A DNA stretch of 32,000 nt from Candidatus Binatia bacterium (GCA_036009625.1 DASYLJ010000177.1:11501-43500), one strand, 5' to 3'; numbered from the stretch's first letter, positions 6,793 to 29,974 are shown. The notes: generated by a model not told the origin, from the letters alone. Numbers and translations: made by a program.

Positions 6793-8103
6793 CTATTCGG
6801 TGGACACCACGCCACACGCTCCGGATGGGCCGACGCGGAGGCTGGCGTGGATCGGCATCGCCGCTCCGAACCCGGTGCGGGGTGTCTTCAGCACCAGCTT
6901 CCGGAGGGCACCTTTCCGGATGGTCGCCCGCGCGATGGTGAAGGCCCCCACGGCGCTCTGTTGGAACTGGCCGCGGCCGACGCGGCGCCATGGCCCGGCG
7001 ATGACCTGGCAGCCGGCCTCCGCCGTCGAAATCACGACGGTGGTTTCGGCCGCGTCGAAGAGCACGCCGGGCGGTGGCCGCGCGACCACCGACAGGCGCA
7101 GGCCGTTGCGCCCATACGTCGCCGTACCGGTGATCGGCTCGGCGAGTGTGCAGCACGCCGGATCGTCCGCGTCGACCAACGCGTTGCCGTCATCGTCGAG
7201 GCAATTGTCGCAGGTTTCGGTGGGGGCCGACGTCGCCATCCCGCAGTTGCACGAACACGACGACGCGGTCGTGCCGTTGTCGGCGCCGTCGTCGCAGAGC
7301 TCGCCGAGATCGGTGTCGAGGAAGCCGTCACCGCAGGCGGCGCCGAGGCACGACTGCCCGGCGTGGATCGGTGCCCCGATGCCGATGATCGGTCCGGTCT
7401 GCTTCGTGAAGCCGAGCACGACGTCGTACTCGGCGCGGCTGCCGGTCGATGCGATCGGGTTCTGGTCGTAGCGCTCCGTGGGGGTGCACGGGAAAAGGCT
7501 GCAGTCGATGTCGGCGCCGCAGGTGCGGACGCCGTCCTCGCACACACCCGCGTCGCACGTCCGGTCGCATGCGAAATCGCCTTCGCACTCGGCGAACAGC
7601 CCCGTCGTTTCGGGGCGCTTGCAGGCGGTTCTCGACGTGGCCAGGCAGCTACCGTCGGCGCAGCCTTCGACGCCGAGCAGGCTGGCTATCTCGGAGGAGT
7701 AGAACTTGTATGCCAGCCACGACCCCTGGGGGAGATGGGTTCGAACGAGCTCGGTCTCGGTGAGGCCGGTGACGCCGTTCTCGCTGGACACGCACAGCTG
7801 CGCCGGTTGGTTGTTGTCATCGCAGGCCGGGTACTGCACCGTGGTTGCGACGTCGTTGCGCGAGCACAGGACGGCCCCTTCGGTGCGCAGGACCCAGCTG
7901 GCGGTGCTGCCGGCTGGACCGCAGGCGTCACCATGATCCGTCACGGTGAACGTGATGCGGGCCGAGCGGTCACCAAAGGTGCCGAAGCTGCGTTCCCCAG
8001 GTGGCGGCCCCCCCGCACGTGCGTTACCGCCGAGGACGACCAAGGCGCAGAGCAGCAAGGTGCCCAGGTGCATACGCCGCTGGAGCGGTTCGATGCCGCG
8101 CAT
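6793..8103 (-). CDS. Secreted cysteine-rich repeat protein (Myxococcus-type CGDG...CDDG repeat and metal-binding-like CxxCxDDD motif)
   Basis: Signal-peptide-like N-terminus MHLGTLLLCALVVLGGNARA; the alternative start is ATG 8073. There are more than 30 Cys residues. CGDGFLDTDLGELCDDGADNG matches the myxobacterial cysteine-rich repeat, and ETCDNCLDDDGNALVDADDPACC resembles the DDD-rich putative metal-binding repeat. High GC3. Confidence 0.7.
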   Translation of the reverse strand: MRGIEPLQRRMHLGTLLLCALVVLGGNARAGGPPPGERSFGTFGDRSARITFTVTDHGDACGPAGSTASWVLRTEGAVLCSRNDVATTVQYPACDDNNQPAQLCVSSENGVTGLTETELVRTHLPQGSWLAYKFYSSEIASLLGVEGCADGSCLATSRTACKRPETTGLFAECEGDFACDRTCDAGVCEDGVRTCGADIDCSLFPCTPTERYDQNPIASTGSRAEYDVVLGFTKQTGPIIGIGAPIHAGQSCLGAACGDGFLDTDLGELCDDGADNGTTASSCSCNCGMATSAPTETCDNCLDDDGNALVDADDPACCTLAEPITGTATYGRNGLRLSVVARPPPGVLFDAAETTVVISTAEAGCQVIAGPWRRVGRGQFQQSAVGAFTIARATIRKGALRKLVLKTPRTGFGAAMPIHASLRVGPSGACGVVSTE

Positions 8104-8155: not shown

Positions 8156-11100
8156 TCACCGTCGCGGGGCCAGCTCGCAGATACCCTCCCATGGCACGGA
8201 CGGGGGATCGTCGCGCAGCTGGCGGCATCGGTCACAGTAGAGCCGTACGGCAGGATCGTCGGGATAGTCCCGCGCCAGGCGCTCGAATCGCGCAAGGGCC
8301 TCGGCGAAATCACCCGCCAGGTACTCGGCTCGCGCACGCACGAAGTGATCCTCGAGACGGCGTAGTCGTCCGTCGAGATCGTCGCTGACCGTCCCCAGCA
8401 GCTCGTGGACGACCAGCGGCGCTTCGCGGTCGGTGATGCGCACGCGATCCAGCTCCCGAAAGACGAATTCGGAGCCGGCGCTGCGTCGGGTCGCGTCGCT
8501 GACGAGGATCGGAGATCCATGACAACGCAGACGCTGCAGCGTCGCGGCCATGTCGGCAGCGTCGCCGCGGGCCGTGAAATGAACGTCGAGCCCGTCGCCG
8601 AAGTTGCCGACCAGGGCGTGTCCCGATGCGATGGTGACGGGAAGCAGCGGCGCGCTCGCAGGGGCATCGTGGAGGAGGGCGAGTGCACCGCGGCAGGCGG
8701 CCGCGGCGTGGTCCGGACCCACCATGCGGTCGTCCCAGAACGCGGTCAGGCCCAGGCGAGTTCGGAGGTCCACGATGCCGCGGGCCGCGACCAGTGGGCG
8801 CTCCAGGGCATGGCGCGCCTCGTCGTCGAGGACGTCCACGGGGCCGGTCATCAGCACGGATGCGTCGGCATGCACGGGCGCCTTCGTGACGTCGGGAAGG
8901 ATCGTGTTGAACAGCTCGCTCGAGGCATCGATGCCGGTGTCGTCGCGCGCGAGACCGACTGCGGTGGCATCGGCGATGCGCGCCAGATGCGCCAGCTCCT
9001 GCGGGTCGTAGACCTCGCCGGAGCGGCGAACGCCGAGAACGATGAAACCGAGGAAGAGTGGTCCCTGGCGTAGCCCGAGGACGATCTCGCCGTGCAGCCG
9101 GGTGAGGACGTGCCGCTGCGACGGCGGAATGCGCATGGCCGCCAGGGTGCTCCAGCGGACCTGAAGGTCGGCGACGCCTGGAGCATGGTAGAGCACCGAC
9201 AGGATCGGATCGTCGAGCGACAGGGTGGATGGCGGGGCCCGGCGCCCCGGACGCCCCTGGGTGAACGCGGTCCGGAAGGTGGTGCCCTCGCGCACGTAGC
9301 CCGTGCATTCGGAGACTCCGATCAGCGTCATCAGACGCTCGCACGAGAGCCGCAGCACGTCGCGTGCGTCCCGACGCGTGGCGAGATCCGCGAGGAGCTC
9401 GTCGGTGGCCGTCGCGAGTCGCCGGCGTTCCGACCGGAAGAGGCGGTCGACCACGGGCACGATCACCCACGCACGCAGGACGAGGGCTCCGACCAGGAGG
9501 GCGACGGTCATGATGGTCGCGACCAGCCGTCGCAACGCCTCGCTGGCCTCGCCGGGGACGAGCTGCTCCACGGCAGCGCGGGTCACGTCCGGATAGACGA
9601 GCAGGCCGCCGCAGGCCACGACGAACAGCGTCGAGTACAGCATGGTGGTGCCGGCGAGGAGCCGATCGATGTCGAGCAGGTTTGCTCGCGTTACCGCGAC
9701 CAGAATCGACAGCGGAATGAGCGCCTCGCAGAGCATCAGGACGTCGTGGAGCCAGTACCATGCGGACCCTCCGATGCCGGCGACGGCGTTGGCGAGGGCG
9801 ACCGGGAGCAACGCGGCATAGAAGCCGAAGTAGATCCACTTGATCTGCAGGCGTCCGCGGGGATCGGCGTTCCGGTAGTTGCGCGTGATGAGCGCTAGGA
9901 TCGCGACCACGAACACGAGATTGACGACGTACATCCCGACGATGCCGAGCCACGTCGGAAGGGGGCCGCCGAGGACGTAGGTCAACACGAGCGGACCGAA
10001 CACGGCGAAGAGCCACGGCCAGTATTTCGGCGGGGGCGGCGCCGAGGATTCCGGCACCATGGCGATGGGGCGGACCAGAAGCGGAAAGACCAGTGTGGAG
10101 CTGACCGCGAAGACCGTGAGCCACATCCAGCTCATCGCCGGCGTCCCGCCGAAGAACCACAGCCAGTGCAGGGCCAGGAGCAATGCGCCGACGTAGACGG
10201 CCCGAGCGAATGCGGAGTGCGGTCGGCGCAGGAAGACGAACAGGCCGGTGAACACGTAGACGCCGGTCATGACGGGAAGGCGCCATGCGGATGCAACCGG
10301 GACGAAGGGAAGCTCGGTCACGAGTCGCGTGCCGCCGCGATCGATCAGGGCCGGCACGACGCCGGTGGGGGATCGCCAACGCTCGTCCTGTGCCGCGACG
10401 AAGACGTCGATACGACCGGCGCCGGCGAGGTCGGTGGTTCCGACCGACAGCAGGCGGTCGCCCGGCCTCGGCATGGTGTCGCTCGTCGCGGCCGTTCCCG
10501 GCCAGTACGCCTGGACGGTCGGATGGTCGGAAGAATCCGTTGCTGGTGTGACGTACACCCCGACCCATGCCAGGCCATGGTGGAGCATCTGTGCGCTCCA
10601 TGCGCCGACGGCGACGAGCCAGAGCAGGGCCAACGCGAGCATGGCGACCTCGCGCAGACCGAGGTCCCCGGCGCGATCGCGTGCGCCTGCGGTCCAACGA
10701 CGCCACGACGCGTCCTGGGCGGCGATCGGTGGTCGCGCGGGGGGCCATGGTCGATCGGAACGATGCGGATGGTCGCCCGGTGGGGTGGAGGCGGGCCGCT
10801 CGAGCGCGCGATCGAGGAGACGAATGCGGTCGGTGTCGACGGGACGCCGCGGAATGCCCAGCGCCTGCACGCCGGCGCGGATGGCCGGGAGCGTTTGCTC
10901 CAGAGACGCATGGGTCAGCCGGGTCGAGGTCGCGGCCCCCACCATGAATGCCACGTTGGGTGCCCGGCGCTTCAGATCGTCGTGGGTGATGTCGAGCAAC
11001 AGCGGAACGAGCGGCTTGCCGCCTTCCACGGCTGCGAGGAGCTCGCGATCGACCTGCGGCGAATGCAACGACCGTGGAGACAGGATCACCAGCAGGGCCG

Positions 11101-11263
11101 TGGACGCGGCGACCGCCCGTCGAACGCGTTCGACGTAGGAGGGCCCGGTCTCCGTGTCGACCTCGTAGATCCAGGTCGCATGACCGGCCACCTCGAGGTC
11201 GCGCGCGATGATGAGAGCGACGTCGGCATCTTCGGCCACGTGGCTTATGAAGATCGTGCTCAT
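8156..11263 (-). CDS. 1035-aa multidomain membrane protein: N-terminal TIR, PDZ-like loop, about 10 TM segments, GAF-like domain, catalytically degenerate class III cyclase-homology domain, TPR-like tail
   Basis: Domain coordinates are approximate.
- TIR (aa 1-135, nt 10859-11263): IFISHVAEDADVALIIARDLEVAGHATWIY...LLVILSPRSLHSPQVDRELLAA, with the conserved Glu at E74 (codon 11042-11044).
- PDZ-like (aa 235-320): ...PGDRLLSVGTTDL...
- Hydrophobic segments: aa 205-225 and nine more between aa 328 and 605.
- GAF-like (aa 620-775): ends ...GEIVLGLRQGPLFLGFIVLGVRRSGEVYDPQELAHLARIADATAVGL.
- Cyclase-like (aa 795-950, nt 8414-8881): ASVLMTGPVD replaces the xxVLFxDIVGFT metal-binding motif, and ARGDAADMAATLQ replaces GxxVNxAxRxE. 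The metal Asp and the Asn/Arg are therefore lost.
- C-terminal tail: YLAGDFAEALARFERLARDYPDDPAVRLYCDRC is typical of sequence downstream of bacterial cyclase domains. Confidence 0.85.
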   Translation of the reverse strand: MSTIFISHVAEDADVALIIARDLEVAGHATWIYEVDTETGPSYVERVRRAVAASTALLVILSPRSLHSPQVDRELLAAVEGGKPLVPLLLDITHDDLKRRAPNVAFMVGAATSTRLTHASLEQTLPAIRAGVQALGIPRRPVDTDRIRLLDRALERPASTPPGDHPHRSDRPWPPARPPIAAQDASWRRWTAGARDRAGDLGLREVAMLALALLWLVAVGAWSAQMLHHGLAWVGVYVTPATDSSDHPTVQAYWPGTAATSDTMPRPGDRLLSVGTTDLAGAGRIDVFVAAQDERWRSPTGVVPALIDRGGTRLVTELPFVPVASAWRLPVMTGVYVFTGLFVFLRRPHSAFARAVYVGALLLALHWLWFFGGTPAMSWMWLTVFAVSSTLVFPLLVRPIAMVPESSAPPPPKYWPWLFAVFGPLVLTYVLGGPLPTWLGIVGMYVVNLVFVVAILALITRNYRNADPRGRLQIKWIYFGFYAALLPVALANAVAGIGGSAWYWLHDVLMLCEALIPLSILVAVTRANLLDIDRLLAGTTMLYSTLFVVACGGLLVYPDVTRAAVEQLVPGEASEALRRLVATIMTVALLVGALVLRAWVIVPVVDRLFRSERRRLATATDELLADLATRRDARDVLRLSCERLMTLIGVSECTGYVREGTTFRTAFTQGRPGRRAPPSTLSLDDPILSVLYHAPGVADLQVRWSTLAAMRIPPSQRHVLTRLHGEIVLGLRQGPLFLGFIVLGVRRSGEVYDPQELAHLARIADATAVGLARDDTGIDASSELFNTILPDVTKAPVHADASVLMTGPVDVLDDEARHALERPLVAARGIVDLRTRLGLTAFWDDRMVGPDHAAAACRGALALLHDAPASAPLLPVTIASGHALVGNFGDGLDVHFTARGDAADMAATLQRLRCHGSPILVSDATRRSAGSEFVFRELDRVRITDREAPLVVHELLGTVSDDLDGRLRRLEDHFVRARAEYLAGDFAEALARFERLARDYPDDPAVRLYCDRCRQLRDDPPSVPWEGICELAPRR

Positions 11264-11297: not shown

Positions 11298-12755
11298 TCA
11301 CCTCGCCAGGCGCGTCATGCGGATCGTGAGGAGCACGGCGAGCGCGAGTGCTATGGCGAGCGGGGTGTCGCCGGTGCGTTGATAGACGGTGGTTCCGTCG
11401 AGGGGGACGATCATGGCGTTCAGGACGTCGGGTCGACCGAAGCTGCTCGTGCGAGACAGTCGCCCCTGCGGGTCGATGACGGCCGAATACCCCGTGGTGG
11501 CCGCGCGGAGCAGCCATCGCCGCGACTCGATGGCGCGAAACGACGCGATCTCGAGATGGTGGCGTGCCGCCGCCTCGCTTCCGAACCACGAGTCGTTGGA
11601 GAGGTTCAGGAGCAGCTGTGCGCCCCCGGCAACGGTTTCGCGGACCAGCTCGGGATACATGGCCTCGAAGCACAGGAAGATGCCGAGTCGCCCGGCCCTG
11701 GACGTCAGCACGCCTGACTCCACACCGCCGGTATAGTGCGTCGTGCCCGTGGTTTCGGCGAAGGGCACGAGCCGACGCTTGTCGTATCGTCCAGCGAGGT
11801 CACCGTCGCGGACCAGAAAGACCGAGTTGTGATAGACGGTGCCGGCGGTGTCGGTGAATGCGTAATGCGGTGCGCCGAGAACGAGATCGCTTCCGAATCG
11901 GCGCGATCCATCGAGGAGCTCTTCGCGCTCGCGCGAAGCCTCCTGCGGGTAGAAGCTGACGGCATACTCGGGCCAGACGATGAGTGCCGGCGGCGCCGTG
12001 CTGGTGCTCGAGAGCGCCAGATGCTCCGCGAGGCCGACGCGCTGATACTCCGGGAGCCAGTGCAGTCCGCGACCGACGCCGGCCTGCACGACCATCACCG
12101 GCACGTCGGGCGTGGGCGCCGGCCGCGTCAGCTGCCAGCGTCCGTACACGATCGTCGCGACGACGGCGCATCCCACCGCGGCTGTCGACCAGCGCTGGCG
12201 GCGTCCGCGGAGATCCGGAACGAACCTCGATGCCACCAGCGCGTTGACGGCTGCCACCAGCATGCCGCCGGCGTACGGACCGGCGAGATCGGCGGTCTGC
12301 GTCAGGGTGGGCCAGTGTACCAGCGCGTACCCCGAGAGGACCCAGGGGTCGCCGCCGAAGGCGCGGGCACGGACCAGCTCGTATCCTGCCCACGCGAGGG
12401 CCACGCGTCCGGGGGAGGCCACGCCGGCGCGCGCCATCCAACCGACCGCGGCGCCGAAGGCCGCGCAATAGATGCCGGCGTGGGCCATGCCGATGACGGG
12501 TAGGCTGAGCCACCCGATCCACGCGGGTTGCTCGAAGTAGACAGAGATCATGCCTGGGAACCACGTGCCCGTCTCCACGCCGATCGCGGTTCCCCAGAGG
12601 AGGCCGAGCAGGGCGCCCCGCAGGGGGCCGTGGCGGGTGAGAGCGACCAGGAAGGGGATCAACGCGACCCAGATCAGCGGCGTGAACGACCATGGCGGAA
12701 AGCAGGCCGCGTACAACGTGGCGGAGGTCAGGACGAGGAGGGCGGAGACCAGCAC
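11298..12755 (-). CDS. lnt: Apolipoprotein N-acyltransferase
   Basis: Polytopic N-terminal half plus a CN-hydrolase domain with the Glu-Lys-Cys triad contexts IVWPEYAV, YDKRRLVPFAE and LGIFLCFEAMYPE. The Lnt-typical LLLNLSNDSWFG is also present. GTG start at 12755. Confidence 0.9.
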   Translation of the reverse strand: MLVSALLVLTSATLYAACFPPWSFTPLIWVALIPFLVALTRHGPLRGALLGLLWGTAIGVETGTWFPGMISVYFEQPAWIGWLSLPVIGMAHAGIYCAAFGAAVGWMARAGVASPGRVALAWAGYELVRARAFGGDPWVLSGYALVHWPTLTQTADLAGPYAGGMLVAAVNALVASRFVPDLRGRRQRWSTAAVGCAVVATIVYGRWQLTRPAPTPDVPVMVVQAGVGRGLHWLPEYQRVGLAEHLALSSTSTAPPALIVWPEYAVSFYPQEASREREELLDGSRRFGSDLVLGAPHYAFTDTAGTVYHNSVFLVRDGDLAGRYDKRRLVPFAETTGTTHYTGGVESGVLTSRAGRLGIFLCFEAMYPELVRETVAGGAQLLLNLSNDSWFGSEAAARHHLEIASFRAIESRRWLLRAATTGYSAVIDPQGRLSRTSSFGRPDVLNAMIVPLDGTTVYQRTGDTPLAIALALAVLLTIRMTRLAR

Positions 12756-12833: not shown

Positions 12834-15428
12834 CTACACGATCTTGCGCACCCGGAATCCTGCCCGCTCGACGAGCAATGGAAGGTCCCGGATGGTGTTG
12901 CGATCCCTGACCTTGTCGGGCTCGGTGAGCAGGTCCCAGGGTATCAGGAGCGGGTGATGCTTGCGGGCGTCGTCGCGCTTGGGGGCGAAGGTCCAGCCGC
13001 TTCTTCGACGTTCAGCCATCCAGCGATCGTGCTCGCGCATCGCGAGCATCTCGATGTCGGCGTCGGTGATGATGATCTCCGACGGGCGCATGCCGTGGCT
13101 AGGAGCGAGCTCATACCCGAGGAGACGGAGCTTGTCTGGAATGTCCGCCACGTTGGCGCGGTTCGCATGCCGGAGATCCTCGGTCAGATCCTCCCAGGGG
13201 CGCATCGACCTGTTGGTGAGCGGAGTATCGCCGCGCATCCGGGATTCCGCGCAGTAGCTGTCGTGCTGCGCTCTCGCCAGGTCCTCGAGTGCGAGCACGC
13301 GTTGCGGGACGACGCGGTAGATGCGGTAGCGGCCCGGATAGCCCTTCGCGAGCGGAATCGTGCCCCCGTACTCGCACACGAATCCCTCGTCGCCCGCCGT
13401 GTCGTGACCGATGCCGGCCGACTGCCGCCGGCGCTCGATCTCGGCGCCGAGCTCCGCGAGCGCGGCGAACTCCTCACTCGCGAAGACCTCGCCAGGTCTG
13501 GTCACCGGTTCGATGCGCGCCGCCCGGTTCACGTGCGACCCGGTGAACCCGAGCCGTCGAACGACCGGGTCGTAGTGCATGACGACCGGACCGGCGTGGA
13601 GCCCGGTGCGGATGTTCAAGGGATGCTTCTCCCCATCGAGCTCCCAGTAGAGGCCCAGCGCGAGCCACTCGTCCCGACCTTCCTGCACCAGCTGGGCGAG
13701 CTCCAACGCGAACAGACCAGCGTCACGCGCGAAATCGAACACCGCGTAGATCGCGTCACCCCAGGTGTTGACGCTGCACGGCGCGTGCTTGCTCGTCGCG
13801 ATCAGCTGGGCGACGCGCCCGAGGAAGGCGCCGACGAACTCGGGGACCACCTTTTCGGTGAGCTTGCTGTAGCCGACGATGTCGGCGAACAGCATGCTCT
13901 TCACTTCCTGGTGCATGCTCGATCGCTCGCACCTACGGACCCACGGTTCGTGGGTGCCGACGCTGTCGTGGTCCACCGGCACGGCCGGTGGCTGGACGAT
14001 GATCGGCTGCTCCTGCAGCTGCCCGTGCCAGAACCAGTAGGTGGAATCCGTTCCGCCCGCGCCGCGGCCGGGGAACCCGTTCCAGAAGACCATGGGCTGG
14101 ATGTCGAGCCGTGATGCCCGCGCCGTGTAGAGGGCGATGCCCGCACTGACCTCCACCATGTATTCCCAGCCCACGTCGCTGCTGGGCTCGTAGACCTGAC
14201 CGATTTCGCGGATGGTGGCCGCGCCATCGATCGCGCGCTCGAACAGGGGCTGCCAGACCGGCGGGCCGGGCAGATCGAACGGCTCGATGCTGGTGCGACG
14301 GAACTCCTCCTTCGACCATGGGAGGACGAGGTGGACCGTCCCCCCACGTGCCAGCAGGGCCTCGGCGAACAGGAGATCGGCACCAGCGCACGCGCTCACG
14401 AGACCGACTCTCGCTTGCAGGGTGTCGAGCTGCTTGCGGAGCGACTCACGCGCGCCCTCGATTGATTCCGGTGGAAACCGCACGCGCTCGCCCGGACGAT
14501 CGGGAAGATGGCCGGCGAAGACGATGAGCTGCAGCGGCGGGAATGCGGACTTGAACAGATCGCGCGGCTGGCCGAGCGCCTCGGCCAGGAATTGCGCCCA
14601 GTAGCGCCGCTCGGCGAGCTGCGCCGTGGTGACGTTCTCGATGGTCTGCAGCAGCTCGTAGTGCCTCGTGGCCGCCTGCACGTCGCCGAGCACGGTGAGC
14701 GCGGTGGCGCGCGCCCATGTCGTGTCCAGACTCGGGCCCTCGTCGTCCTCGCGCGCATTCACGCGGGTGACGACGTCCCGCGCCTTGCTCCGCGCCTCGT
14801 CGCGGAGGGCAGATCCTTCCTCGCCGAGGACGAACGCGGCGGCGGCGGTGAGGACGAGGGCGTCGAGCTGCGTTGGGTCGAGTGCCAACGCACGCTGGTA
14901 GAACCCCAGCGCCTGCTCCGCCGTTCGGACGTAGGTGGCCTTCGCCGCCACGTGCTGCGATTCTTCACGGAGGATGTCGCCCAGCTGCAGGAGGATCGCG
15001 AACTGCATGCGCCGGCCCAAGACCGGTCGGGAGCGGGGATCCAGACACGGCTCGATCACGCTCCGTGCGTCTCGCGTCAGGCCGAGTCGCGTGAGGGCGG
15101 ACGCGTAGTCCATCCGGACTCGGACGAGCTCGGTGGGATCGTTCTGATCGGCCGGGTCGAGGCGGAGAATCTCGCGCGCAGCATCCCATACGAGGAGGAA
15201 CTCCTCCTGCGCGAGCGCATGGCGCGTGAACAGCCGCGCGAGCGCGATGTCCTGCTGCAACCAGGCAATCTGCGGCGCGGGTCGTCCCACCCCGTCGGCC
15301 TTCTTGCGCTGATCCGGGTCCGGTACCGGTTGCCGCTGCGCCCAGATCGCGTGCAGATCGCGTACCGAGACTCTGTCCGACCGGAGAAGGCTCTCGACGT
15401 CGCCGACGTGCTCGAAGCTCATGACCAT
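12834..15428 (-). CDS. 864-aa multidomain protein: TPR-like N-terminus, SLOG/DprA-LOG-like Rossmann domain, intact class III nucleotide cyclase domain with non-canonical specificity residues, two C-terminal RyR repeats
   Basis: Domain coordinates are approximate.
- TPR-like helical repeats: aa 55-295.
- SLOG-like (aa 298-470, nt 14019-14537): LIVFAGH...VGLVSACAGADLLFAEALLARGGTVHLVLPW (DprA-like Gly-rich motif) and GFPGRGAGGTDSTYW (LOG-like GGxGT motif).
- Cyclase (aa 505-705, nt 13314-13916): MLFADIVGYS (metal Asp D516, codon 13881-13883), NTWGDAIYAVF (D558), IRTGLHAGPVV, GSHVNRAARIE (N634, R638). Asn554 (codon 13767-13769) sits where adenylyl cyclases have Lys, and Gly627 where they have Asp.
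- RyR repeats (aa 712-860): LARAQHDSYCAE...RPWEDLTEDLRHANRANVADIPDKLRLLGYEL and LAMREHDRWMAERRRSGWTF...HHPLLIPWDLLTEPDKVRDRNTIRDLPLLVERAGFRV. Confidence 0.85.
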   Translation of the reverse strand: MVMSFEHVGDVESLLRSDRVSVRDLHAIWAQRQPVPDPDQRKKADGVGRPAPQIAWLQQDIALARLFTRHALAQEEFLLVWDAAREILRLDPADQNDPTELVRVRMDYASALTRLGLTRDARSVIEPCLDPRSRPVLGRRMQFAILLQLGDILREESQHVAAKATYVRTAEQALGFYQRALALDPTQLDALVLTAAAAFVLGEEGSALRDEARSKARDVVTRVNAREDDEGPSLDTTWARATALTVLGDVQAATRHYELLQTIENVTTAQLAERRYWAQFLAEALGQPRDLFKSAFPPLQLIVFAGHLPDRPGERVRFPPESIEGARESLRKQLDTLQARVGLVSACAGADLLFAEALLARGGTVHLVLPWSKEEFRRTSIEPFDLPGPPVWQPLFERAIDGAATIREIGQVYEPSSDVGWEYMVEVSAGIALYTARASRLDIQPMVFWNGFPGRGAGGTDSTYWFWHGQLQEQPIIVQPPAVPVDHDSVGTHEPWVRRCERSSMHQEVKSMLFADIVGYSKLTEKVVPEFVGAFLGRVAQLIATSKHAPCSVNTWGDAIYAVFDFARDAGLFALELAQLVQEGRDEWLALGLYWELDGEKHPLNIRTGLHAGPVVMHYDPVVRRLGFTGSHVNRAARIEPVTRPGEVFASEEFAALAELGAEIERRRQSAGIGHDTAGDEGFVCEYGGTIPLAKGYPGRYRIYRVVPQRVLALEDLARAQHDSYCAESRMRGDTPLTNRSMRPWEDLTEDLRHANRANVADIPDKLRLLGYELAPSHGMRPSEIIITDADIEMLAMREHDRWMAERRRSGWTFAPKRDDARKHHPLLIPWDLLTEPDKVRDRNTIRDLPLLVERAGFRVRKIV

Positions 15429-15497: not shown

Positions 15498-18400
15498 TCA
15501 GCCGCGGCGACGCTGGCGTGGACGACCCCGGCGAGGGGTGGCCGCGTGCCGTCGTCCGGGTGTCCTGCCGATGTCCGCCTCGAAGAATCGGAAGAACGGA
15601 TTGCCATAGTGCTGATAGGCGCCCCACGTGCGTACGCCGTAGGCCAGTTTCCCGACGACCCGGCGGGCTTCACGCATGGCCTCGTGCATGGCCTCGGGCG
15701 GCTCGACGTCGGCTGTGTTGGCAGGGGTTCCCTCCACGTCGAGACCGAGGAGGCCACCGTAGAGCCGCCGCGCGAACGCGCGCGCGGCCATGTCGTCGAC
15801 GGGCCACGCCGTGCAGACGAAGTTCGCGACGCCGCGCGCGAAGAACGCCTCGGCGAAGCTCGGCGCGAGGGTGGCGTTCCTCAGCTCGGAGCGATCCGGG
15901 GTGATGCCGGACTCGCACGCATTCGAGAACACGAACTTGGGGATGCGGTCGATACGGTTCAGCTCGCGTGCGCTCAGGGTCTTGCCGCCGGAGAAGATCC
16001 AGCCCGATGCAGGCGGATTCGTCTCGTCGTAGAAGCAGTGGCCCGCGAAGTGCAGCACGTCCCAGGCGCTCCCCATGAGCTCTTCCAGCACACGGGCACG
16101 CGTTGCCTCGCTCGGGCCGAAGAGCCGCACGACCTCGGCGCGGTTCTCGTGCCGACCCTGCGCGGCCGCGTTGAAGCGCTCGAAGAGCTCCGCGACGGCG
16201 ATGCCTTCTTCCTCTGCGCCCGGGAGGTGTGCCTCGGCCGCGGGATCGGCCACGATGAGCACCCGGAGGGTCCGCCGGGGTGGTGGCGGTGGCTCGGGCG
16301 GTGGGGCGAAGGCCGTCCGAAGCTGGCGCGTGAGGCCACCCGCCGTCCCGAAGAATCGATCGAACTCGTCGGTCGCGATCGGCGACGCCGGCAGCGGGGT
16401 TCCAGGAGGCGCATCGAGATCGGGGCGGGTGACGAGCTCCCAGTGAATCGCCGCGGCCTTCGTGTCGAGCAGCATCACCAGTGGAGCATTACCGCGCAAT
16501 CGCTCGCGGAAATCGGCCGGGAACATGAAGCGACCGAGGTTGCCTCCGTGCCACTCCTGCTGCTTGACGTCGGTCACCGTCACTAGCGACTCGTTGATCT
16601 CGCCGACCAGTGTCGAGTCGAGGTCGATCTCGCGCTCTGGGACCGAGGCGGTCTCGGTCAACGCACCATAGCGGTACTTGTCGTGCTCGAACGTCAGGGT
16701 GATGCGTGTGGGCGGCGGGTCCGTTCGCGGGGATGCCTCGGCGCTCCGCCGGGCCTTCTCCTGCTTGCGGTCCCAGGCGATGGCCTGCCGGTTCAGACGT
16801 TTCGTCTGCTCGGGTGTGAGTGGGGCGTAGCGCAGCGTGAACGGCGCGCCGTCGTCGTGGTCGCGCTGCTCGTCCGCCAGCGCGCGATCGATCTCGGCGA
16901 CGCGATGGGGATCGAACTCGACGAACGTGATGCGCTGGAGCCGCCGCCGTGTGTCGCTGCTCGACCCCGTGAGTGCGTACCGGAGACCACGTACCCATGC
17001 CTGCACGGCCGCGCGCACGGGCAGGTTCCCGTTGCCCGAACCGATCAGCACGGTCGCGAGGTGCTGCTTGCCGAGACGCCCGAGGGCCCAGGCGAGCTCG
17101 CGGACGAGGACCACCAACTCGGGACTGCCGAACCGCGCCGGAACACCGAGCCCGGCAACGGCGAGCACGCGTTCCGGGGACCGTCGGCGCCCGACCCGCT
17201 GGCGAGGATCGGGCAGGAGAAACGGCGTACCCAGCTCTCCCCGCAGCACGCCGCGATCCGTGTACTGGGTGAGCAACAGGTCGGCCGTCCCGACGTCCCG
17301 CGACGAGACGGTGGCGCGCCGGCCGGGCAGTACGGCGCTGATGGCGCGATCGAGCGCCAGCTCGGCTGCCTGCGGGCGCACGCCGAGGTAGTGCCCGACG
17401 GCGACGGCATCGACCGGAAGGCGGCGGCCCCCCAGCTCGTGGGCCCCGTCGATGCTTCCGAGCTGGACGTCGACCTGCACCGAAACCATCGTTTGCGGGC
17501 GCGCGGTCATCGAGCCCGGCGCCGGTCGGGCGGAGGACGGGCTGCCGCCCAGGAAACCGCGAACCACGATGTCCTCGCTGAGGCGCTCCTCGGGAGCGAG
17601 GTAGGTGCGCTCGACCTCTCCCACGCGTGAGCGCGCGCGCATCCGACGCGTGAGCTCCGTGAGCTCCTGTTCCTCGTTCGCTGCGCGCTCGTGCAGGGCG
17701 TGCAGGTCCGCCCGTGTCACCCGCCCGCGCGCGCGGCGCGGAATCGTGGTGCCGAGCGAGCTCGTGCGGCCGTCCTTCAAGAGGTCGTCCAGGGCGGTGA
17801 GGACCGCGTCGTTCATGGGGAGACTGCCGTGCTCGGCCTCGACGTAGTACGTCGGGACGTCCCGCCCGTTCGCGGTGCGTAGCAGTCCCAGGTCGTGGGT
17901 TACGCGTCCATCCCCATCACGGGTCCATAGGTAGGCGCCCTCGTCGCGAAACTTCGACGGATCACGGAGGCCTGCCAGGGTGAGCTGATTGCACCCTGCG
18001 ACGTAGATCATGCGGTCGGGATCGACCACGTTCTGGAGTGCGACGTGTTGTCGCGCGGCGGCCTCGAGATGCTCTCGCCAGATGTCGAGCCCATAGGTGG
18101 AGGCATCGTAGAGGGGTTGCATCGACGGCACCGCGATCGGTGACGGCAGCATCTGCAGAAGCCCGGGAAAAGACGCGATGATGCTGCACACGTCCTTCAC
18201 GCCGTGGTGGAGGTCGACCAATGCGAGTTTCCGCACGAGGGGTTCGATGCCCGCGATCACCTGCGGCACGACGAAGGCCCCGTGGTTCGGCGTGCCGAGC
18301 ATCACGAGTCGCCCGCCTGCCATGCGCCGCCACAGCTGGTCGTGGTTCAGGATGAAGGTGCGTGCGACCAGTCCTCCCATCGAGTGGGCGACGAGATGCA

Positions 18401-18926
18401 CCGGTCCGCCGTCGGGGAACCATTCGACGATCTTCGCGGCCAGATCGGCCGCGGCCAGATTCAGATCCTTCCGCCAGTCGTACCAGAAGGCTTGCACTTT
18501 CCACCGTGCGCCGAGGGCGATGAGGATGTCGCCGTAGTAACGCTTGAGCATCCCGACGGCGCGGACGTCCCAGCCTGGCTCGTATCCCGCGCGACCATCG
18601 GGCCTGAGGCGCAGGCGATCGAAGGACCCGGCGATGAGGCGCCAGACCTTGACCCAGATCAGCTCATTGTCGGCCTGACGAGTGGCCGCGAGCTCGCCGC
18701 CCATGATGCCGTGAAGGACGACGACGTTGCCGATGGGCCGGCAGGCGCCGCGAGCACGATTCCGCGCCAGCGTGCGACCGTGAAGGCGCTCGTACCGAGC
18801 GTCGCCGAAGTACTGCCGCAGCGCGCGCTCCTGATCGAGCGACGGTCGGAGCAGCAGCCGGGCGAAGTCGTCTGGATTCGCTGCCTCGACCTCGGCAATG
18901 AACGCACGTTCGTCGAACGACGGCAT
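15498..18926 (-). CDS. 1142-aa multidomain protein: N-terminal alpha/beta-hydrolase (LCAT/PGAP1-like lipase), central macro-like (peptidase M17 N-terminal-like) domain, C-terminal CHAT caspase-like protease
   Basis: Domain coordinates are approximate.
- Lipase (aa 65-375, nt 17802-18734): VVVLHGIMGG, YDWRKD, nucleophile elbow VHLVAHSMGGLVAR (S182, codon 18381-18383), RDGDGRVTHD (Asp) and EAEHGSL (His).
- Central region (aa 485-685, nt 16872-17474): DAVAVGHYLG...RVLAVAGLGVPARFGSPELVVLVRELAWALGRLGKQHLATVLIGSG...AAVQAWVRGLRYAL. By eye it resembles the leucyl-aminopeptidase N-terminal macro-like fold.
- CHAT (aa 745-1110, nt 15597-16694): AAIHWELV, LRVLIVADP, catalytic His in VLHFAGHC (H963, codon 16038-16040) and Cys in FVFSNACESG (C1004, codon 15915-15917). 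Confidence 0.85.
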   Translation of the reverse strand: MPSFDERAFIAEVEAANPDDFARLLLRPSLDQERALRQYFGDARYERLHGRTLARNRARGACRPIGNVVVLHGIMGGELAATRQADNELIWVKVWRLIAGSFDRLRLRPDGRAGYEPGWDVRAVGMLKRYYGDILIALGARWKVQAFWYDWRKDLNLAAADLAAKIVEWFPDGGPVHLVAHSMGGLVARTFILNHDQLWRRMAGGRLVMLGTPNHGAFVVPQVIAGIEPLVRKLALVDLHHGVKDVCSIIASFPGLLQMLPSPIAVPSMQPLYDASTYGLDIWREHLEAAARQHVALQNVVDPDRMIYVAGCNQLTLAGLRDPSKFRDEGAYLWTRDGDGRVTHDLGLLRTANGRDVPTYYVEAEHGSLPMNDAVLTALDDLLKDGRTSSLGTTIPRRARGRVTRADLHALHERAANEEQELTELTRRMRARSRVGEVERTYLAPEERLSEDIVVRGFLGGSPSSARPAPGSMTARPQTMVSVQVDVQLGSIDGAHELGGRRLPVDAVAVGHYLGVRPQAAELALDRAISAVLPGRRATVSSRDVGTADLLLTQYTDRGVLRGELGTPFLLPDPRQRVGRRRSPERVLAVAGLGVPARFGSPELVVLVRELAWALGRLGKQHLATVLIGSGNGNLPVRAAVQAWVRGLRYALTGSSSDTRRRLQRITFVEFDPHRVAEIDRALADEQRDHDDGAPFTLRYAPLTPEQTKRLNRQAIAWDRKQEKARRSAEASPRTDPPPTRITLTFEHDKYRYGALTETASVPEREIDLDSTLVGEINESLVTVTDVKQQEWHGGNLGRFMFPADFRERLRGNAPLVMLLDTKAAAIHWELVTRPDLDAPPGTPLPASPIATDEFDRFFGTAGGLTRQLRTAFAPPPEPPPPPRRTLRVLIVADPAAEAHLPGAEEEGIAVAELFERFNAAAQGRHENRAEVVRLFGPSEATRARVLEELMGSAWDVLHFAGHCFYDETNPPASGWIFSGGKTLSARELNRIDRIPKFVFSNACESGITPDRSELRNATLAPSFAEAFFARGVANFVCTAWPVDDMAARAFARRLYGGLLGLDVEGTPANTADVEPPEAMHEAMREARRVVGKLAYGVRTWGAYQHYGNPFFRFFEADIGRTPGRRHAATPRRGRPRQRRRG

Positions 18927-18932
18927 GCGGCG

Positions 18933-19724
18933 TCAGGCGAAGATCTGCCGGCGGGTCTTGGCCGCTGCACCTTCGAGCTGCGGGGATTGCGGATAGTCCC
19001 TGATCGCGCGGCGGAGACGGCGATGCAGCTCGTCGTAGGTCAGCTGGTACTTCGCGCGCTCGATGGTCTTGAGCGCGTAGTACGTCATGGCGCCGTGCGG
19101 AATGCCGTCGAACTCGGCGTCGTACGAGTACTGACGGTCGTTGCACCCCGAGAGCACCACCTCTTTCATCTTGGCTTCGGGGTAGTCGGGCCGCGTTGGT
19201 CGTGCGGCCCACGGGTTGTCGAGCTCCGGTAGGCCGCGGAGACGCGGGTTCAGGAAGCGCACCCGTCGGTTGTCGGGCGTGGCACGGTCGAGGGCACGGG
19301 TCGCCGTGCCCGAGAAGCAGTTGTCGAGGATCACGGTGAGCCGGACGCCCTTCGGCAGGCCGGCGATCAGCTCGCGGAGCTCGTCGTCGACGATATCGTT
19401 GGCGTCGATGTCGTAGGGGCACAGAACCTCGTCGTACTTCTCTTCGTCGCCGTCCGTGTCCGCCACATAGGAGCCGTGAGATGAATTGGTGAAGACGAGA
19501 ACGTCGCCCGCCGTCGCCCCGGCCAGGAGTGCCTTGAGGGCGCGGAGCGTCGCACGCTTGGTCGCCTGGGCATTGAGGAGAAGCTTCACGTCGCCCTTCG
19601 AGAAGTCGTAGTGGTCGGCCAGCAGTGCCGCCCACGCGCGCGCGTCGTTGACGCATCCGCTCAGGTCGTTGCCCTTGTACGGGTAATCGTTGATCCCGAC
19701 GCAGAGCGCGCGTTTCCTTCCCAT
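18933..19724 (-). CDS. Peptidase C14 caspase/metacaspase-like protease (stand-alone, 263 aa)
   Basis: RALCVGINDY, with catalytic His in VFTNSSHGS (H83, codon 19476-19478) and Cys in VILDNCFSGT (C136, codon 19317-19319). Start ATG 19724 is preferred over 19757 because of the GGGAGGA SD 6 nt upstream. The stop lies only 6 nt before the start of the CHAT gene. Confidence 0.85.
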   Translation of the reverse strand: MGRKRALCVGINDYPYKGNDLSGCVNDARAWAALLADHYDFSKGDVKLLLNAQATKRATLRALKALLAGATAGDVLVFTNSSHGSYVADTDGDEEKYDEVLCPYDIDANDIVDDELRELIAGLPKGVRLTVILDNCFSGTATRALDRATPDNRRVRFLNPRLRGLPELDNPWAARPTRPDYPEAKMKEVVLSGCNDRQYSYDAEFDGIPHGAMTYYALKTIERAKYQLTYDELHRRLRRAIRDYPQSPQLEGAAAKTRRQIFA

Positions 19725-19890
19725 GCGGCGTCCTCCCGGTGCGGCTCGAGCCCGCACTCGGTGAGCAAACGACGTGCCGGCGCGTCCCGTCGGGAATCAC
19801 CCACGGTACCGACGACGGCGTCCCGTACAGTCGACATCGTGTCCGGCGGAGCGGACGACGCCGTGTCACCCACGCGTGTCCGGAGACGAC

Positions 19891-26820: not shown

Positions 26821-26878
26821 GCCACCGCGACCCGTCCGGTTATTGCACCATGTGTGCAGGCTGTTGTATCGCCAGCGC

Positions 26879-27991
26879 ATGGCGTCGTCCGACCCGGTCT
26901 ACCGTCTCTATTCGAGTGAGATCTCCTACTTCTCGCAGAAGGTGCGGCCGGCGTTCCGCTGGAAGCGCGCGCCCTTCGTCGAGCTGCTGGCCACCACCAA
27001 GGCCAGCCGCGAGGTGATCGGCCCTCGCACCGGGCTCGCGATGATTCCCGTCGTCGTGACGCCCGAGGACGAGACGTGGCAGGACTCGAGCGACATTCTC
27101 GATGCGCTGGAGCGCCGCTTCCCCGAGCCACCGCTCTACCCGACGACGCCGGCGCAGCGCCTCGCCGCCTACTGCATCGAGCTCTGGACCGACGAGTTCC
27201 TCCTGATCCCCGGCGTCCACTGGCGATGGAGCTATCCCGAGAGCGCCACCAAGGCACTCGCCGAGTTCGCCGCCAACATGGGGTCGAAGGGCGGTGCCGA
27301 TCGCTTCGCCGGCGCGGTGCAGAACTTCACGCGCATGATCGGCGTCCAGGAACAGACGATCCCCGCGATCGAGGCCCACACGCACGACACCCTCGCGGCC
27401 CTCGAGGCGCACTTCGCCGTGCATCCCTATCTCCTCGGCGGCCACCCGTCGCTCGCCGACTGCGCGCTCATGGGCCCGTTCTACGGCCACTTCTACAACG
27501 ACGCCGTGCCCGGCCGTCTGCTGCGCGAGACCGCGCCGCGCACGTGTCACTGGATCGAGCGCATGAACCACCCCGGCTCCGATGACGTCGCCGGCAGCTG
27601 GCTCGCCGACGACGAGATCGCGCCGACGATGCGCGCGCTGCTGACCGTCGCCGGGCGCGACACGGCGCCGATCGTGCTGAACAACGTGCGCGCGTTCGAG
27701 GAATGGGTCGACACGTCGCCGCTGACGAGCGGCGAGCTGCCGCGCATCGTCGGCATGCACACCTCGACGTTCCGCGGGATCGAGGTCGAGCGCATCACGC
27801 TCCCCTACACGTCGTGGATGTTGCAACGCGTGCAGGGCGCCTATGCGGCGCTCGATGGCGCCGGGCGTGCCACGGTCGATCGCACCCTCGCCGGTACCGG
27901 CTTCGACGACATCCTCGCGTACTCGCCGCGCCATCGCGTACGCCGCAATCCCTACAAGGTGGAACTCGATCGTACGACGACGACGGTGTAG
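26879..27991 (+). CDS. Glutathione S-transferase-like protein with extended C-terminal region
   Basis: Thioredoxin-like GST_N pattern YRLYSSEISYFSQKVR...IPVVVTPEDETWQDSSDILDALERRFPEPPLYP and GST_C pattern HPYLLGGHPSLADCALMGPFY. Start ATG 26879 (MASSDP) was chosen inside the 26810 ORF. Confidence 0.75.
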   Translation: MASSDPVYRLYSSEISYFSQKVRPAFRWKRAPFVELLATTKASREVIGPRTGLAMIPVVVTPEDETWQDSSDILDALERRFPEPPLYPTTPAQRLAAYCIELWTDEFLLIPGVHWRWSYPESATKALAEFAANMGSKGGADRFAGAVQNFTRMIGVQEQTIPAIEAHTHDTLAALEAHFAVHPYLLGGHPSLADCALMGPFYGHFYNDAVPGRLLRETAPRTCHWIERMNHPGSDDVAGSWLADDEIAPTMRALLTVAGRDTAPIVLNNVRAFEEWVDTSPLTSGELPRIVGMHTSTFRGIEVERITLPYTSWMLQRVQGAYAALDGAGRATVDRTLAGTGFDDILAYSPRHRVRRNPYKVELDRTTTTV

Positions 27992-28000
27992 GGGTTCCCG

Positions 28001-28396
28001 ATGAGCGCCATCTTTCCGAACCTCGAGCAGTTCCAGGAGCTGGCCCAGAGCAGGGACACGGGACCGGTGGTGATGATCAACCTGGCGGCGTTCCGCTCGG
28101 GTGGTGGCGCGGGGGGCGCGGCGTTCGCGCGCTGGGCCGAACGCGCGGTGCCGATGGTGGAGTCGGTCGGCGGCAAGCTGCTGTTCGCGGGGCGCGGCGA
28201 TCAGGTGCTCGTCGGCGACGCGGCGGAGTCGTGGGACGTCGTGGCGCTGACGTGGTACCCGTCGCGTCGGGCCTTCCTCGAGATGGTGACGGGTCCGGCC
28301 TACCGGGCGGTGAACGAGGATCGGGAACGCGCCCTCGAGCGCACGCTCATGGTGGCGTGCACGCCGATGATCGACGACCTCTCGCGGAAGGATTGA
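28001..28396 (+). CDS. DUF1330 domain protein
   Basis: 131 aa with GPVVMINLAAFR...WDVVALTWYPSRRAFLEMV...Y..V...R..ALE, the pattern I associate with DUF1330 (dimeric alpha-beta barrel-like). Starts 9 nt after the GST-like stop. Confidence 0.75.
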   Translation: MSAIFPNLEQFQELAQSRDTGPVVMINLAAFRSGGGAGGAAFARWAERAVPMVESVGGKLLFAGRGDQVLVGDAAESWDVVALTWYPSRRAFLEMVTGPAYRAVNEDRERALERTLMVACTPMIDDLSRKD

Positions 28397-28399
28397 CCC

Positions 28400-29974
28400 A
28401 TGGGCCGCAAGATTCTCTTCATCACCACCGACCAGCAGCGCTACGACGCGCTCGGCTGCAACGGTGGCACCGTCGCGCGCACGCCCGTGGTCGATCGCCT
28501 CGCGGCGACGGGCATCAACTACCGCCGCGCGCACAACCAGAACGTCGTCTGCATGCCGGCGCGCTCGACGATGCTGACGGGGCAGTACGTCCGCACCCAC
28601 GGCGTGGTCGCGAACGGCGTCGCCCTGCCGATGGATGCGCCCAGCGTCGCCGCGCATCTCAACGCGCACGGCTACCGCACGGCGCTGCTCGGCAAGGCGC
28701 ACTTCGATCCGGCGTTCGACATGGGCGGCCGCTGGTTCGAGAACCGCATGGCGCGCGAGGGCTCCACGGGACCGCACCGTGGTTTCGACCACATGGAGCT
28801 GGCGATGCACAGCCCCATCGGCGGCTGGCACTACTCGCTGTACCTGCAGCGCGAGCATCCCGACGAGACGGCGGGCTTCGCGACGCTGCTCTCGGCGAAG
28901 GGCGGCGGCGACACCGGCGCGCCCGAGGTGGCCTACAACCCCATCCCGCGCGAGCACTACCACACCGACTGGGTCGCCGATCGCACCATCGCCTATCTCG
29001 ACTCGCTGCCCGCCGACGCCGACTGGTTCGTGTGGATGAGCTTTCCCGACCCGCACCATCCGTGGGATCCGCCGGCGTCCGAGGCGCGACGCGTGCGCTG
29101 GCAGGATCTCGACCTGCCGCCCGGCCATCCCGGCAGCCCCGAGAAGATCGTCGAGATCCTCGCGCAGAAGCCGCGCCACTGGCTCGACTGGTGGGAGGGA
29201 CGCTTCCGCAACAACGAAGGCGGCCCGATGTCGTTCGTGCCGTCGCGCCTCACCGACGATCAGATCCGCGAGGTCAACGCGCTGACGCACGTCGAGAACG
29301 AGCTCATCGACGAAGCGTGCGGTCGCGTCATGAGGCGCATCGCCGAGCGCGGCTGGGACGCCGACACCGACGTGGTGTTCACCACCGACCACGGCGAGCT
29401 GCAGGGCGACTATGGGTTGCTCTACAAGGGCCCGTACCACGTCGATTCGCTGATGCGCCTGCCGTTCGTCTGGCGCCCGGCGCCGTCGGCGGGCGTCACG
29501 CCGGCGGTGATCACGGAGCCGGTCGGACAGCTCGACCTGGCGCCCACGTTCTGCCAGATCGCGGGCGTGCCGATCCCCGAATGGGTGCAGGGCAAGCCGC
29601 TGCCGACGGCGCCGGGCTCGGATCGCCAACGTGTCCTCACCGAGTGGGACAGCCAGTTCCGCGAGATCGGCATGCACCTGCGCACCATCTATCGCGACGG
29701 CTTCATCTGCACCGTCTACGAGCCGACGACGCGCGACTACGGCGTCGAGCTCACGAAGCTGCTGAAGGCGTTCGGCTCGAAGCGCGCGGCGCCGGACATC
29801 CGCTACGATGGCAGCGAGGGCGAGCTGTACGACGTCACCGCGGATCCGCATCAGTGGCGCAATCTGTGGAACGATCCGGGGTACGCGAAGCTGCGCTCCG
29901 ACCTGGTGGCGGATCTGTACGACAGCCTGCCGGCGCCGCGACAGCCGCAGCTGCCCGTCGATACGTTCGCGTGA
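28400..29974 (+). CDS. Formylglycine-type sulfatase (arylsulfatase/choline-sulfatase-like), no signal peptide
   Basis: KILFITTDQQRYDALG, the sulfatase CxPxR signature as NVVCMPARSTMLTG, LLGKAHF, and TTDHGE near the C-terminal half. The protein starts directly with the catalytic core (MGRKILFITTDQ), so it is probably cytoplasmic. Confidence 0.9.
   Translation: MGRKILFITTDQQRYDALGCNGGTVARTPVVDRLAATGINYRRAHNQNVVCMPARSTMLTGQYVRTHGVVANGVALPMDAPSVAAHLNAHGYRTALLGKAHFDPAFDMGGRWFENRMAREGSTGPHRGFDHMELAMHSPIGGWHYSLYLQREHPDETAGFATLLSAKGGGDTGAPEVAYNPIPREHYHTDWVADRTIAYLDSLPADADWFVWMSFPDPHHPWDPPASEARRVRWQDLDLPPGHPGSPEKIVEILAQKPRHWLDWWEGRFRNNEGGPMSFVPSRLTDDQIREVNALTHVENELIDEACGRVMRRIAERGWDADTDVVFTTDHGELQGDYGLLYKGPYHVDSLMRLPFVWRPAPSAGVTPAVITEPVGQLDLAPTFCQIAGVPIPEWVQGKPLPTAPGSDRQRVLTEWDSQFREIGMHLRTIYRDGFICTVYEPTTRDYGVELTKLLKAFGSKRAAPDIRYDGSEGELYDVTADPHQWRNLWNDPGYAKLRSDLVADLYDSLPAPRQPQLPVDTFA

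Follow-up and report, generated by a model that had tools for sequence, protein, structure and literature searches.

What is the role of a bacterial protein in which a class III nucleotidyl cyclase is joined to tetratricopeptide repeats (TPR), to a SLOG-like domain and to a tandem of RyR repeats? This question is raised by a gene on the minus strand of a 32,000-nucleotide stretch of DNA from Candidatus Binatia bacterium (GCA_036009625.1 DASYLJ010000177.1:11501-43500), the whole of which is called the window here. A preliminary description of the gene had suggested a signal relay, with a SLOG sensor reading one nucleotide and the cyclase making another. We found the family of this protein to be linked to TIR genes, and three of its module classes, TPR-S, SLOG and RyR, have each been tied, by experiment or by prediction, to ligands of the ADP-ribose (ADPR) type. 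For these two reasons an effector or relay that responds to a TIR-made signal is the best supported role, and we propose with moderate confidence that the gene acts as such in a TIR-based conflict system (Thoeris-like, of the nSTAND1/TIR/TPR-S type) with a cyclic-nucleotide output. The domain identities, the conservation of residues, the obligate coupling of SLOG-like domain and cyclase, and the association with TIR genes in the genomes are direct observations and are given first.

The gene is a single open reading frame whose 864-residue product has four parts: a TPR region of TPR-S type, a Rossmann-like SLOG-like domain, a class III cyclase and two RyR repeats. The preliminary description had called these same four domains, and the calls hold, that of SLOG at the level of the predicted fold only; each motif it had quoted was found at its residue. 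A public protein identical to the product (P0001) starts at M3 (window 15422), two codons later, and its record is titled 'RyR domain-containing protein [Candidatus Binatia bacterium]'. No NCBIfam model matches the protein. Its layout, in window coordinates and amino acids (aa), is the following:

12834..15428, minus strand: whole open reading frame, 864 aa
14559..15251, minus strand: N-terminal TPR region of TPR-S type, about aa 60-290 (PF20308, stronger in homologs)
13989..14543, minus strand: predicted SLOG-like Rossmannoid domain, about aa 296-480 (AlphaFold2 (AF2) and Foldseek, conservation)
13314..13916, minus strand: class III nucleotidyl cyclase domain, about aa 505-705 (Pfam PF00211, PDB profile alignments, Foldseek)
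13074..13295, minus strand: RyR repeat 1, about aa 712-785 (by-eye register against repeat 2)
12837..13073, minus strand: RyR repeat 2, about aa 786-864 (Pfam, PDB, BLASTP to DyoEdafos gp78, conservation)

Linkage to TIR genes was assessed with an iterated TIR profile on 82 family loci with flanks of up to 10 kb. TIR open reading frames lay within 10 kb of the family gene in 34 loci and within 500 bp in 23, mostly co-directional with it. For every 10 kb there were 1.6 of them up to 1 kb from the gene and 0.06-0.11 at 2.5-10 kb, a density about 15- to 25-fold higher beside the gene. Pfam confirmed the TIR domain in nine of ten sampled reading frames, and all ten TIR-adjacent family members sampled carried TPR-S and cyclase. 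The partners of the relatives were TIR with an unknown C-terminus, TIR-WD40, TIR-TPR, or TIR+DUF4062 followed by an nSTAND1-TPR NTPase. By these domains the partners resemble sensors or signal generators. The link to TIR emerged only with the sensitive iterated profile, and in more distant subfamilies. A single fixed partner gene was considered as well and rejected, as the 119 flanking reading frames of the first 33 loci had no dominant Pfam family (Peptidase_S8 7, CobW_C 7, CHAT 3, TIR_2 2).

The same numbers bear on another reading, in which the protein would be a common regulatory enzyme of soil bacteria, an adenylyl or guanylyl cyclase without part in immunity that is regulated by its TPR, Rossmann-like and RyR domains, and the TIR neighbours would reflect co-location in islands. 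This remains a serious rival because many close homologs are solitary, beside housekeeping genes, and the public annotation 'class 3 adenylate cyclase/TPR repeat protein' goes in the same direction. Non-canonical specificity pairs are also present in ordinary enzymes that form cAMP, such as Rv1900c (Asn/Asp). The local density and co-orientation of the TIR reading frames argue against it, as does the recurrence of TPR-S, nSTAND1, CHAT, Patatin and SIR2-TIR genes nearby in several phyla, and we consider it decidedly unlikely.

Indeed, at one locus (L001) nSTAND1, SIR2-TIR, TIR-TPR, TPR-S–Patatin and pYEATS-TIR genes stand beside the family gene, and in a metagenome-assembled genome of Terriglobia (L002) the homolog has DUF7379, LCAT and a CHAT–TPR-S gene immediately upstream; CHAT was found close to relatives in three lineages. 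At five loci of Acidobacteriota (L063, L066, L069, L073, L081) a RyR–TPR-S–SLOG-like–cyclase gene is followed by TIR+DUF4062 and then by an nSTAND1-TPR NTPase. The N-terminal RyR was identified there by Pfam in L066 and L069, and nSTAND1 by Pfam in L063, L066 and L069 and by tblastn only in L073 and L081. In L066 an FHA–GAF–cyclase gene lies directly upstream as well. Matching gene sets (nSTAND1-TPR, TIR or SIR2-TIR, pYEATS-TIR, TPR-S–effector fusions) are those of the nSTAND/TIR/TPR-S conflict systems of the Aravind group, and a cyclase-type TPR-S effector may already be among the predictions of Burroughs & Aravind 2020.

The TIR neighbours could also be read in the reverse direction, as in Pycsar or Pucsar: the cyclase would sense infection, and its cyclic mononucleotide (cNMP) would activate the neighbouring TIR NADase effector, and maybe CHAT or caspase. 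Like Pycsar PycC and the cyclase–TIR systems that make cGMP, the family has a cyclase of class III fold beside TIR, with non-canonical base-specifying residues. A PF00211 gene beside a TIR gene is a Pycsar signature, and a survey of TIR systems treated all such pairs in this way, its Methods stating that multi-gene TIR systems containing PF00211 were removed and assumed to be Pycsar (10.64898/2025.12.03.692087); TIR-linked cyclases that are not Pycsar would thus have been filtered out. Cyclases that make cGMP and act together with TIR effectors are described in a 2026 preprint. PADLOC (2023) has no system model for the protein and returned only a weak PycC match (E 8.6e-6), whose 23 bits lie below the 39 bits of the generic Pfam cyclase score. 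Furthermore, Pycsar TIR partners carry a cNMP-binding domain, whereas Pfam found none in 14 adjacent TIR or partner proteins of the family, which carry WD40 or TPR or pair with nSTAND1. PycC enzymes are without the TPR-S, SLOG-like and RyR modules of the cyclase protein, classes associated by experiment or prediction with ADPR-type ligands, and the presence of TPR-S in Patatin and CHAT effectors of the same islands fits parallel receivers of one signal. On balance, we regard the reverse direction as unlikely.

If the signal comes from TIR, the question is which domain receives it. We take TPR-S as the primary receptor because it is common to the other effectors, Patatin and CHAT, in the same islands, and because RyR-less members are still TIR-adjacent. 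The assignment was stronger in relatives than in the window protein, where PF20308 (TPR-S) reached 15.2 bits (E 0.034, gathering score 27.6) and was the most specific of several weak TPR matches. Of 55 close homologs, 32 gave a TPR-S match at E<=0.01. Relatives further away that have an N-terminus homologous to that of the window protein scored 48-83 bits against the cut-off of 27.6, and the Pfam threshold was exceeded in all ten TIR-adjacent relatives sampled as well as in L030. By tblastn, the TPR-S part of a TPR-S–Patatin protein matched the N-termini of relatives. In type VIII Thoeris, the TPR of ThsI was proposed to perceive cyclic ADPR (cADPR) and is of the kind that Aravind's group predicted for TIR-mediated signalling (10.64898/2025.12.03.692087). 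We would identify this TPR as TPR-S (PF20308), a name that the preprint does not give. The relay idea of the preliminary description is thus supported by the TIR enrichment, by the TPR-S type and by the literature on RyR and cADPR, but its sensor, judging from the sequences, is most likely TPR-S and not necessarily SLOG.

The AF2 model of the middle region (aa 288-500, 40 homologs) has alternating beta and alpha elements and is Rossmann-like, with a predicted local distance difference test (pLDDT) score of 88.5 and a predicted template modelling (TM) score, pTM, of 0.86. When it was compared with the PDB by Foldseek, the top matches were mostly proteins of the SLOG superfamily, namely DprA (4ljk, 5mll, 3uqz, 3maj), molybdenum cofactor (Moco) carrier protein (2iz7, 6y01), LOG proteins (1ydh, 5zbk, 5zbl, 5its, 1t35, 1rcu) and the N-terminal domain of TRPM2 (7aov, 8src), which binds ADPR. 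E-values ranged from 1e-4 to 1e-2, the Foldseek probability was mostly 0.9-1.0 for SLOG-family matches and lower for some DprA chains, and the TM-scores were modest at 0.3-0.5. ThsA, the SLOG of which binds 3'cADPR, was not among these matches.

The preliminary description had drawn its SLOG claim from a DprA-like motif and a LOG-like GGxGT motif. On the strength of the predicted fold, which is closest to SLOG proteins, we accept a SLOG-like domain, although sequence comparisons gave no match: Pfam returned nothing for aa 292-483 even at E<=10, two family profiles of the domain (A2, A5) matched no PDB sequence, and hhalign against a DprA profile of E. coli Smf homologs, shallow since all its matches were at least 68% identical, was not significant. 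The conserved motifs are AGH, AxGAD and GxGGT, where G349, D351 and T460 are invariant and H307 and G458/G459 nearly so; AxGAD resembles the DprA loop. The LOG-like motif is present as GxGGT, but the Glu that follows in the LOG-type GGxGT..E motif is absent, the position being T in the window protein and F in the family consensus (by-eye register). A LOG-type hydrolase role was therefore rejected, and the domain would not be a LOG-like enzyme. ThsA keeps this Glu.

The SLOG-like domain and the cyclase belong together. Among clusters at 50% identity the SLOG-like domain family has 3444 representatives at E<=1e-3, and in 123 of 147 new top representatives the cyclase follows it directly, the exceptions being mostly fragments and two degenerate cyclases, so that the pair can be regarded as one evolutionary unit. 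The 406 relatives in species-representative genomes are mainly from Verrucomicrobiota and Acidobacteriota, with some from Planctomycetota, Poribacteria and Proteobacteria. Two proteins, P0195 and P0197, keep TPR-S and the SLOG-like domain with a cyclase that is without the metal-binding Asp motif, one of them having LFIRMGG for FADIVGYS; the TPR-S–SLOG-like–cyclase module may thus sometimes act without catalysis. An apparent SLOG–cyclase–TIR fusion, P0185, was not used, as it seems to be a frameshifted read-through into a downstream TIR gene.

The cyclase was recognized by Pfam as Guanylate_cyc (PF00211) at aa 508-667 (38.8 bits, cut-off 21.9, E 9e-10), and a sequence search of the PDB matched soluble guanylyl cyclase (sGC). 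The AF2 model of the domain (pLDDT 87) superposed in Foldseek on class III cyclases with a target-normalised TM-score of up to 0.79; CyaB, CyaC and Cya2 were matched at E 1e-12. The residues on which its activity and specificity would depend are the following:

13881..13883, minus strand: D516, first metal-binding Asp (invariant)
13755..13769, minus strand: NTWGD motif, with N554 at the Lys/Glu base-specifying position and D558 as second metal Asp (profile alignment, conservation)
13548..13550, minus strand: G627, at the Asp/Cys base-specifying position (profile alignment, conservation)
13515..13529, minus strand: N634-R635-A636-A637-R638, with N634 the ribose-orienting Asn and R638 the invariant phosphate Arg (conservation)

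That Asn and Gly occupy the two base-specifying positions had been concluded from an alignment by eye. A hidden Markov model profile of the family cyclase domain was aligned to three solved cyclases and confirmed it: opposite N554 and G627 stand Glu and Cys in 3et6 (sGC), and Lys and Asp both in 3r5g (CyaB) and in 6aoa (RhGC double mutant). These profile alignments and the superposition of the AF2 model on class III cyclases indicate that the by-eye alignment was right, and the window cyclase has neither the Lys/Asp pair for ATP nor a pair of Glu/Cys type for GTP. Conservation was followed in 55 close homologs and in a wider family of 71 sequences from several phyla. In the close homologs, 49 of 55 have N at position 554 and as many have G at 627. 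The wider family keeps the NTWGD motif almost throughout (66 of 71 sequences have N at 554, 69 have T at 555 and 70 have W at 556), and position 627 is G in 21 sequences, N in 19, S in 18, T in 12 and V in one, but never Asp or Cys. Since they are conserved across homologs, the unusual residues are a family trait and not due to chance.

The statement that the enzyme should be active was only partly borne out. D516, D558 and R638 are invariant in all 71 sequences, and the window cyclase probably still binds metal and triphosphate. The window protein also keeps Asn at 634, the equivalent of Asn1025, but this column is S in 54 of the 71 sequences, N in 15 and T in two, which weakens the claim. 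As judged from these residues, the base pocket and part of the catalytic apparatus are non-canonical. The product had been suspected to be neither cAMP nor cGMP; it cannot be predicted from the sequence, and cAMP or cGMP would fit the present results too. Rv1900c, for example, has Asn/Asp at the two base-specifying positions, yet makes cAMP. Class III cyclases are active only as dimers.

In Pycsar cyclases, the base-determining residues sit at or around equivalent positions and vary by clade: F100/R142/Q144 in EaPycC, with D102/D146 as metal Asp residues, Y50/D94/R97 in BcPycC and F60/K104/F109 in AnPycC (PMC11224242). Counted from the metal Asp, by our own arithmetic, R142 of EaPycC would take the Lys position, and this variability of PycC adds to what can be said for a signal running from cyclase to TIR. 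Because of these positions, it is also plausible that the near-invariant W556, two residues before the second metal Asp, contacts the base.

The unusual pocket brings in a further possibility, that the protein is an NTP-depleting effector, a cyclase made base-promiscuous by small or neutral side chains at the specificity positions, which would cyclise nucleoside triphosphates (NTPs) in bulk and starve the invader with no dedicated messenger. Both purine-reading side chains are lost family-wide while the metal and phosphate residues are invariant, nucleotide-pool depletion has been proposed as the output of ThsA and ThsI in Thoeris, and many family loci are without an obvious cNMP receptor gene. 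The near invariance of N554, T555 and W556, however, argues for a defined rather than a relaxed pocket, class III cyclases are in general slow enzymes, and in one clade, described below, a GAF protein and other cyclases recur and hint at cNMP sensing. We judge bulk depletion to be quite improbable.

The C-terminal module was found by Pfam as RyR (PF02026) at 57.8 bits (cut-off 27.4, E 1e-15); two RyR stretches appeared when the C-terminus was scanned alone, in agreement with the tandem that had been described, and RyR repeats in the PDB were matched at E 9e-27. The preliminary description had called the function of RyR in bacteria unknown, which is out of date. Phage proteins with a single RyR repeat (PF02026) bind 2'/3'cADPR, and their founding member RyDEP (DyoEdafos gp78) cleaves the ribose-ribose bond, with H75 and D117 as catalytic dyad, W78 stacking on the adenine and H100 contacting phosphates; most of the tested homologs only bind (PMC13232231, May 2026 preprint). 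A tblastn search of phages with the RyR region did not reach DyoEdafos, and gp78 was compared by accession instead. In BLASTP its residues 75-117 aligned without gaps to aa 800-842 of the window protein (E 3e-7), so that with identical spacing H75 corresponds to H800, W78 to W803, H100 to H825 and D117 to D842, all in repeat 2. Among RyR-bearing relatives H800, W803 and D842 are invariant and H825 nearly so. In repeat 1 the pocket positions are taken, in a by-eye register, by H722, Y725, R743 and N756, and this pocket is therefore degenerate. Unlike RyDEP, which is a stand-alone homodimer used by a phage against defence, the window RyR is a tandem inside a multi-domain host protein, and binder and hydrolase are not distinguishable from the sequence. 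The placement of RyR varies in the family: it is C-terminal in the window clade, N-terminal in Acidobacteriota, or absent. Such mobility is expected of an accessory module, and RyR looks like one that was recruited repeatedly.

From these observations we infer the ligand, the direction of signalling, the receptor domain, the product and any defence phenotype. The nearby TIR protein, triggered by infection or stress, would convert NAD+ to an ADPR-derived signal, which the TPR-S domain would bind and the SLOG-like domain may bind as well. Binding would drive dimerisation or oligomerisation of the SLOG–cyclase unit, and the cyclase would then convert NTP to a cyclic nucleotide, which would either be a messenger of a second tier or deplete the pool of NTPs. 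The tandem RyR could offer a further pocket for molecules of cADPR type, given that repeat 2 keeps the His/Asp dyad of the cADPR glycosidase; most likely it would buffer or terminate the incoming signal, or serve as a second input.

A more elaborate version can be put forward only tentatively, as we find it somewhat unlikely. In this two-tier cascade the TIR signal would act through TPR-S (possibly the SLOG-like domain) on the NTWGD cyclase, whose cyclic mononucleotide, possibly not cAMP or cGMP, would switch on killers such as a GAF-linked S8 peptidase or proteases of the CHAT or caspase kind. The built-in RyR would act as glycosidase or sponge on the input and so reset it or set its threshold. 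A gene order of its own is kept in a RyR-less clade of Chthoniobacterales, where the genes GAF_2, Peptidase_S8, CobW_C, TPR-S–SLOG-like–cyclase, an unknown 278-aa gene, TPR-CHAT and CHASE2-cyclase follow each other (L030 7097-20826 and 12-17 other loci). What the cyclase makes may be received by the small GAF protein, which is a candidate for this role. Within 10 kb, the loci of this clade have no TIR gene.

The window itself presents the gene among five co-directional genes (caspase, LCAT-CHAT, cyclase, Lnt, TIR) with gaps of 6-78 bp and with no terminator-like site found between them. The four neighbours are:

18933..19757, minus strand: stand-alone caspase (Peptidase_C14), 6 bp upstream of the CHAT gene
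15498..18926, minus strand: LCAT-like alpha/beta hydrolase fused to a CHAT protease, 1142 aa, upstream of the cyclase gene with a 69-bp gap
11298..12755, minus strand: apolipoprotein N-acyltransferase (Lnt), between the cyclase and TIR genes, gaps 78 and 34 bp
8156..11263, minus strand: TIR-domain protein, 1035 aa, 1.5 kb downstream of the cyclase gene, co-directional

Caspase-like peptidases paired with alpha/beta hydrolases were described by Kaur et al. 2020. Lnt is of housekeeping type and probably stands outside the system; tblastn found no Lnt near other family members. The TIR protein (TIR_2 E 4e-17 in Pfam; PADLOC TIR models match too) consists of TIR, a multi-pass membrane region with about 8-10 hydrophobic segments, a region homologous to CHASE2-cyclases, and TPR. 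Its aa 695-1034 matched the cyclase-containing part of the L030 CHASE2-cyclase by tblastn (E 5e-12), and such CHASE2-cyclases lie near RyR-less family members in Chthoniobacterales. By eye its C-terminus could be taken for a degenerate cyclase, which we leave as a side note: Pfam found no cyclase domain there and a comparison with the cyclase profile of the family by hhalign gave no significant match (E 0.14), so any such domain must be highly degenerate. Elsewhere in the window, three long reading frames on the minus strand (369-1718, 6793-8103 and 26840-29851) are without Pfam match. In a genome of 70% G+C, some of these are probably spurious and merely overlap real genes of the opposite strand; the one at 26840-29851 overlaps a sulfatase-like reading frame on the plus strand (28400-29974).

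Several points weigh against a TIR-responsive effector or relay. The family is known here from sequence and predicted structure alone, and the assignment of SLOG is made at the level of the predicted fold. The TPR-S score of the window protein itself falls below the Pfam threshold. The canonical transition-state Asn is poorly conserved among the relatives, which may mean a slow turnover or an atypical chemistry. Lnt separates the TIR gene of the window from the cyclase gene, and the TIR partner is an unusual membrane protein. Among the closest relatives, which are from Verrucomicrobiota and 50-65% identical, most lack a TIR gene or other conflict gene in the 10 kb around them. Finally, the reverse direction, from cyclase to TIR as in Pycsar/Pucsar, remains a serious rival.

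An effector or relay driven by a TIR signal would nevertheless have close parallels in Thoeris. ThsI of type VIII (TPR and a CMP-hydrolase-like domain, activated by canonical cADPR) likewise has an N-terminal TPR with a nucleotide-acting output beside TIR genes, although in the present family, for which we have sequences only, the output is a SLOG-like domain with a class III cyclase, and a RyR module is added. ThsA of type I (SIR2 and SLOG, activated by 3'cADPR) likewise fuses a SLOG-type Rossmannoid domain to an enzymatic output and is TIR-associated; the output of the window protein is a cyclase and not a SIR2 NADase, and its SLOG-like domain may not be the receptor. Among TIR/TPR-S and Thoeris-like systems, the family would stand apart by its cyclase output and its host RyR module. 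In Kaur et al. 2020, cNMP cyclases come up solely in the contexts of vWA/VMAP and EACC1, and neither RyR nor TPR-S is mentioned.

In conclusion, if the proposed role is correct, two branches of nucleotide immunity in bacteria, that of signals derived from TIR and NAD and that of cyclic mononucleotides, would be joined in one polypeptide, where a signal would be converted or amplified in the manner of eukaryotic cascades. RyR domains encoded by the host would have a role in signalling of cADPR type, which bears on the long-debated link between cADPR and animal ryanodine receptors. The finding would also expose a blind spot in the pipelines by which defence systems are discovered. Furthermore, the family would provide many cyclases whose base pocket, NTWGD together with a small residue, is both conserved and non-canonical, and these could be screened for new cyclic nucleotides.

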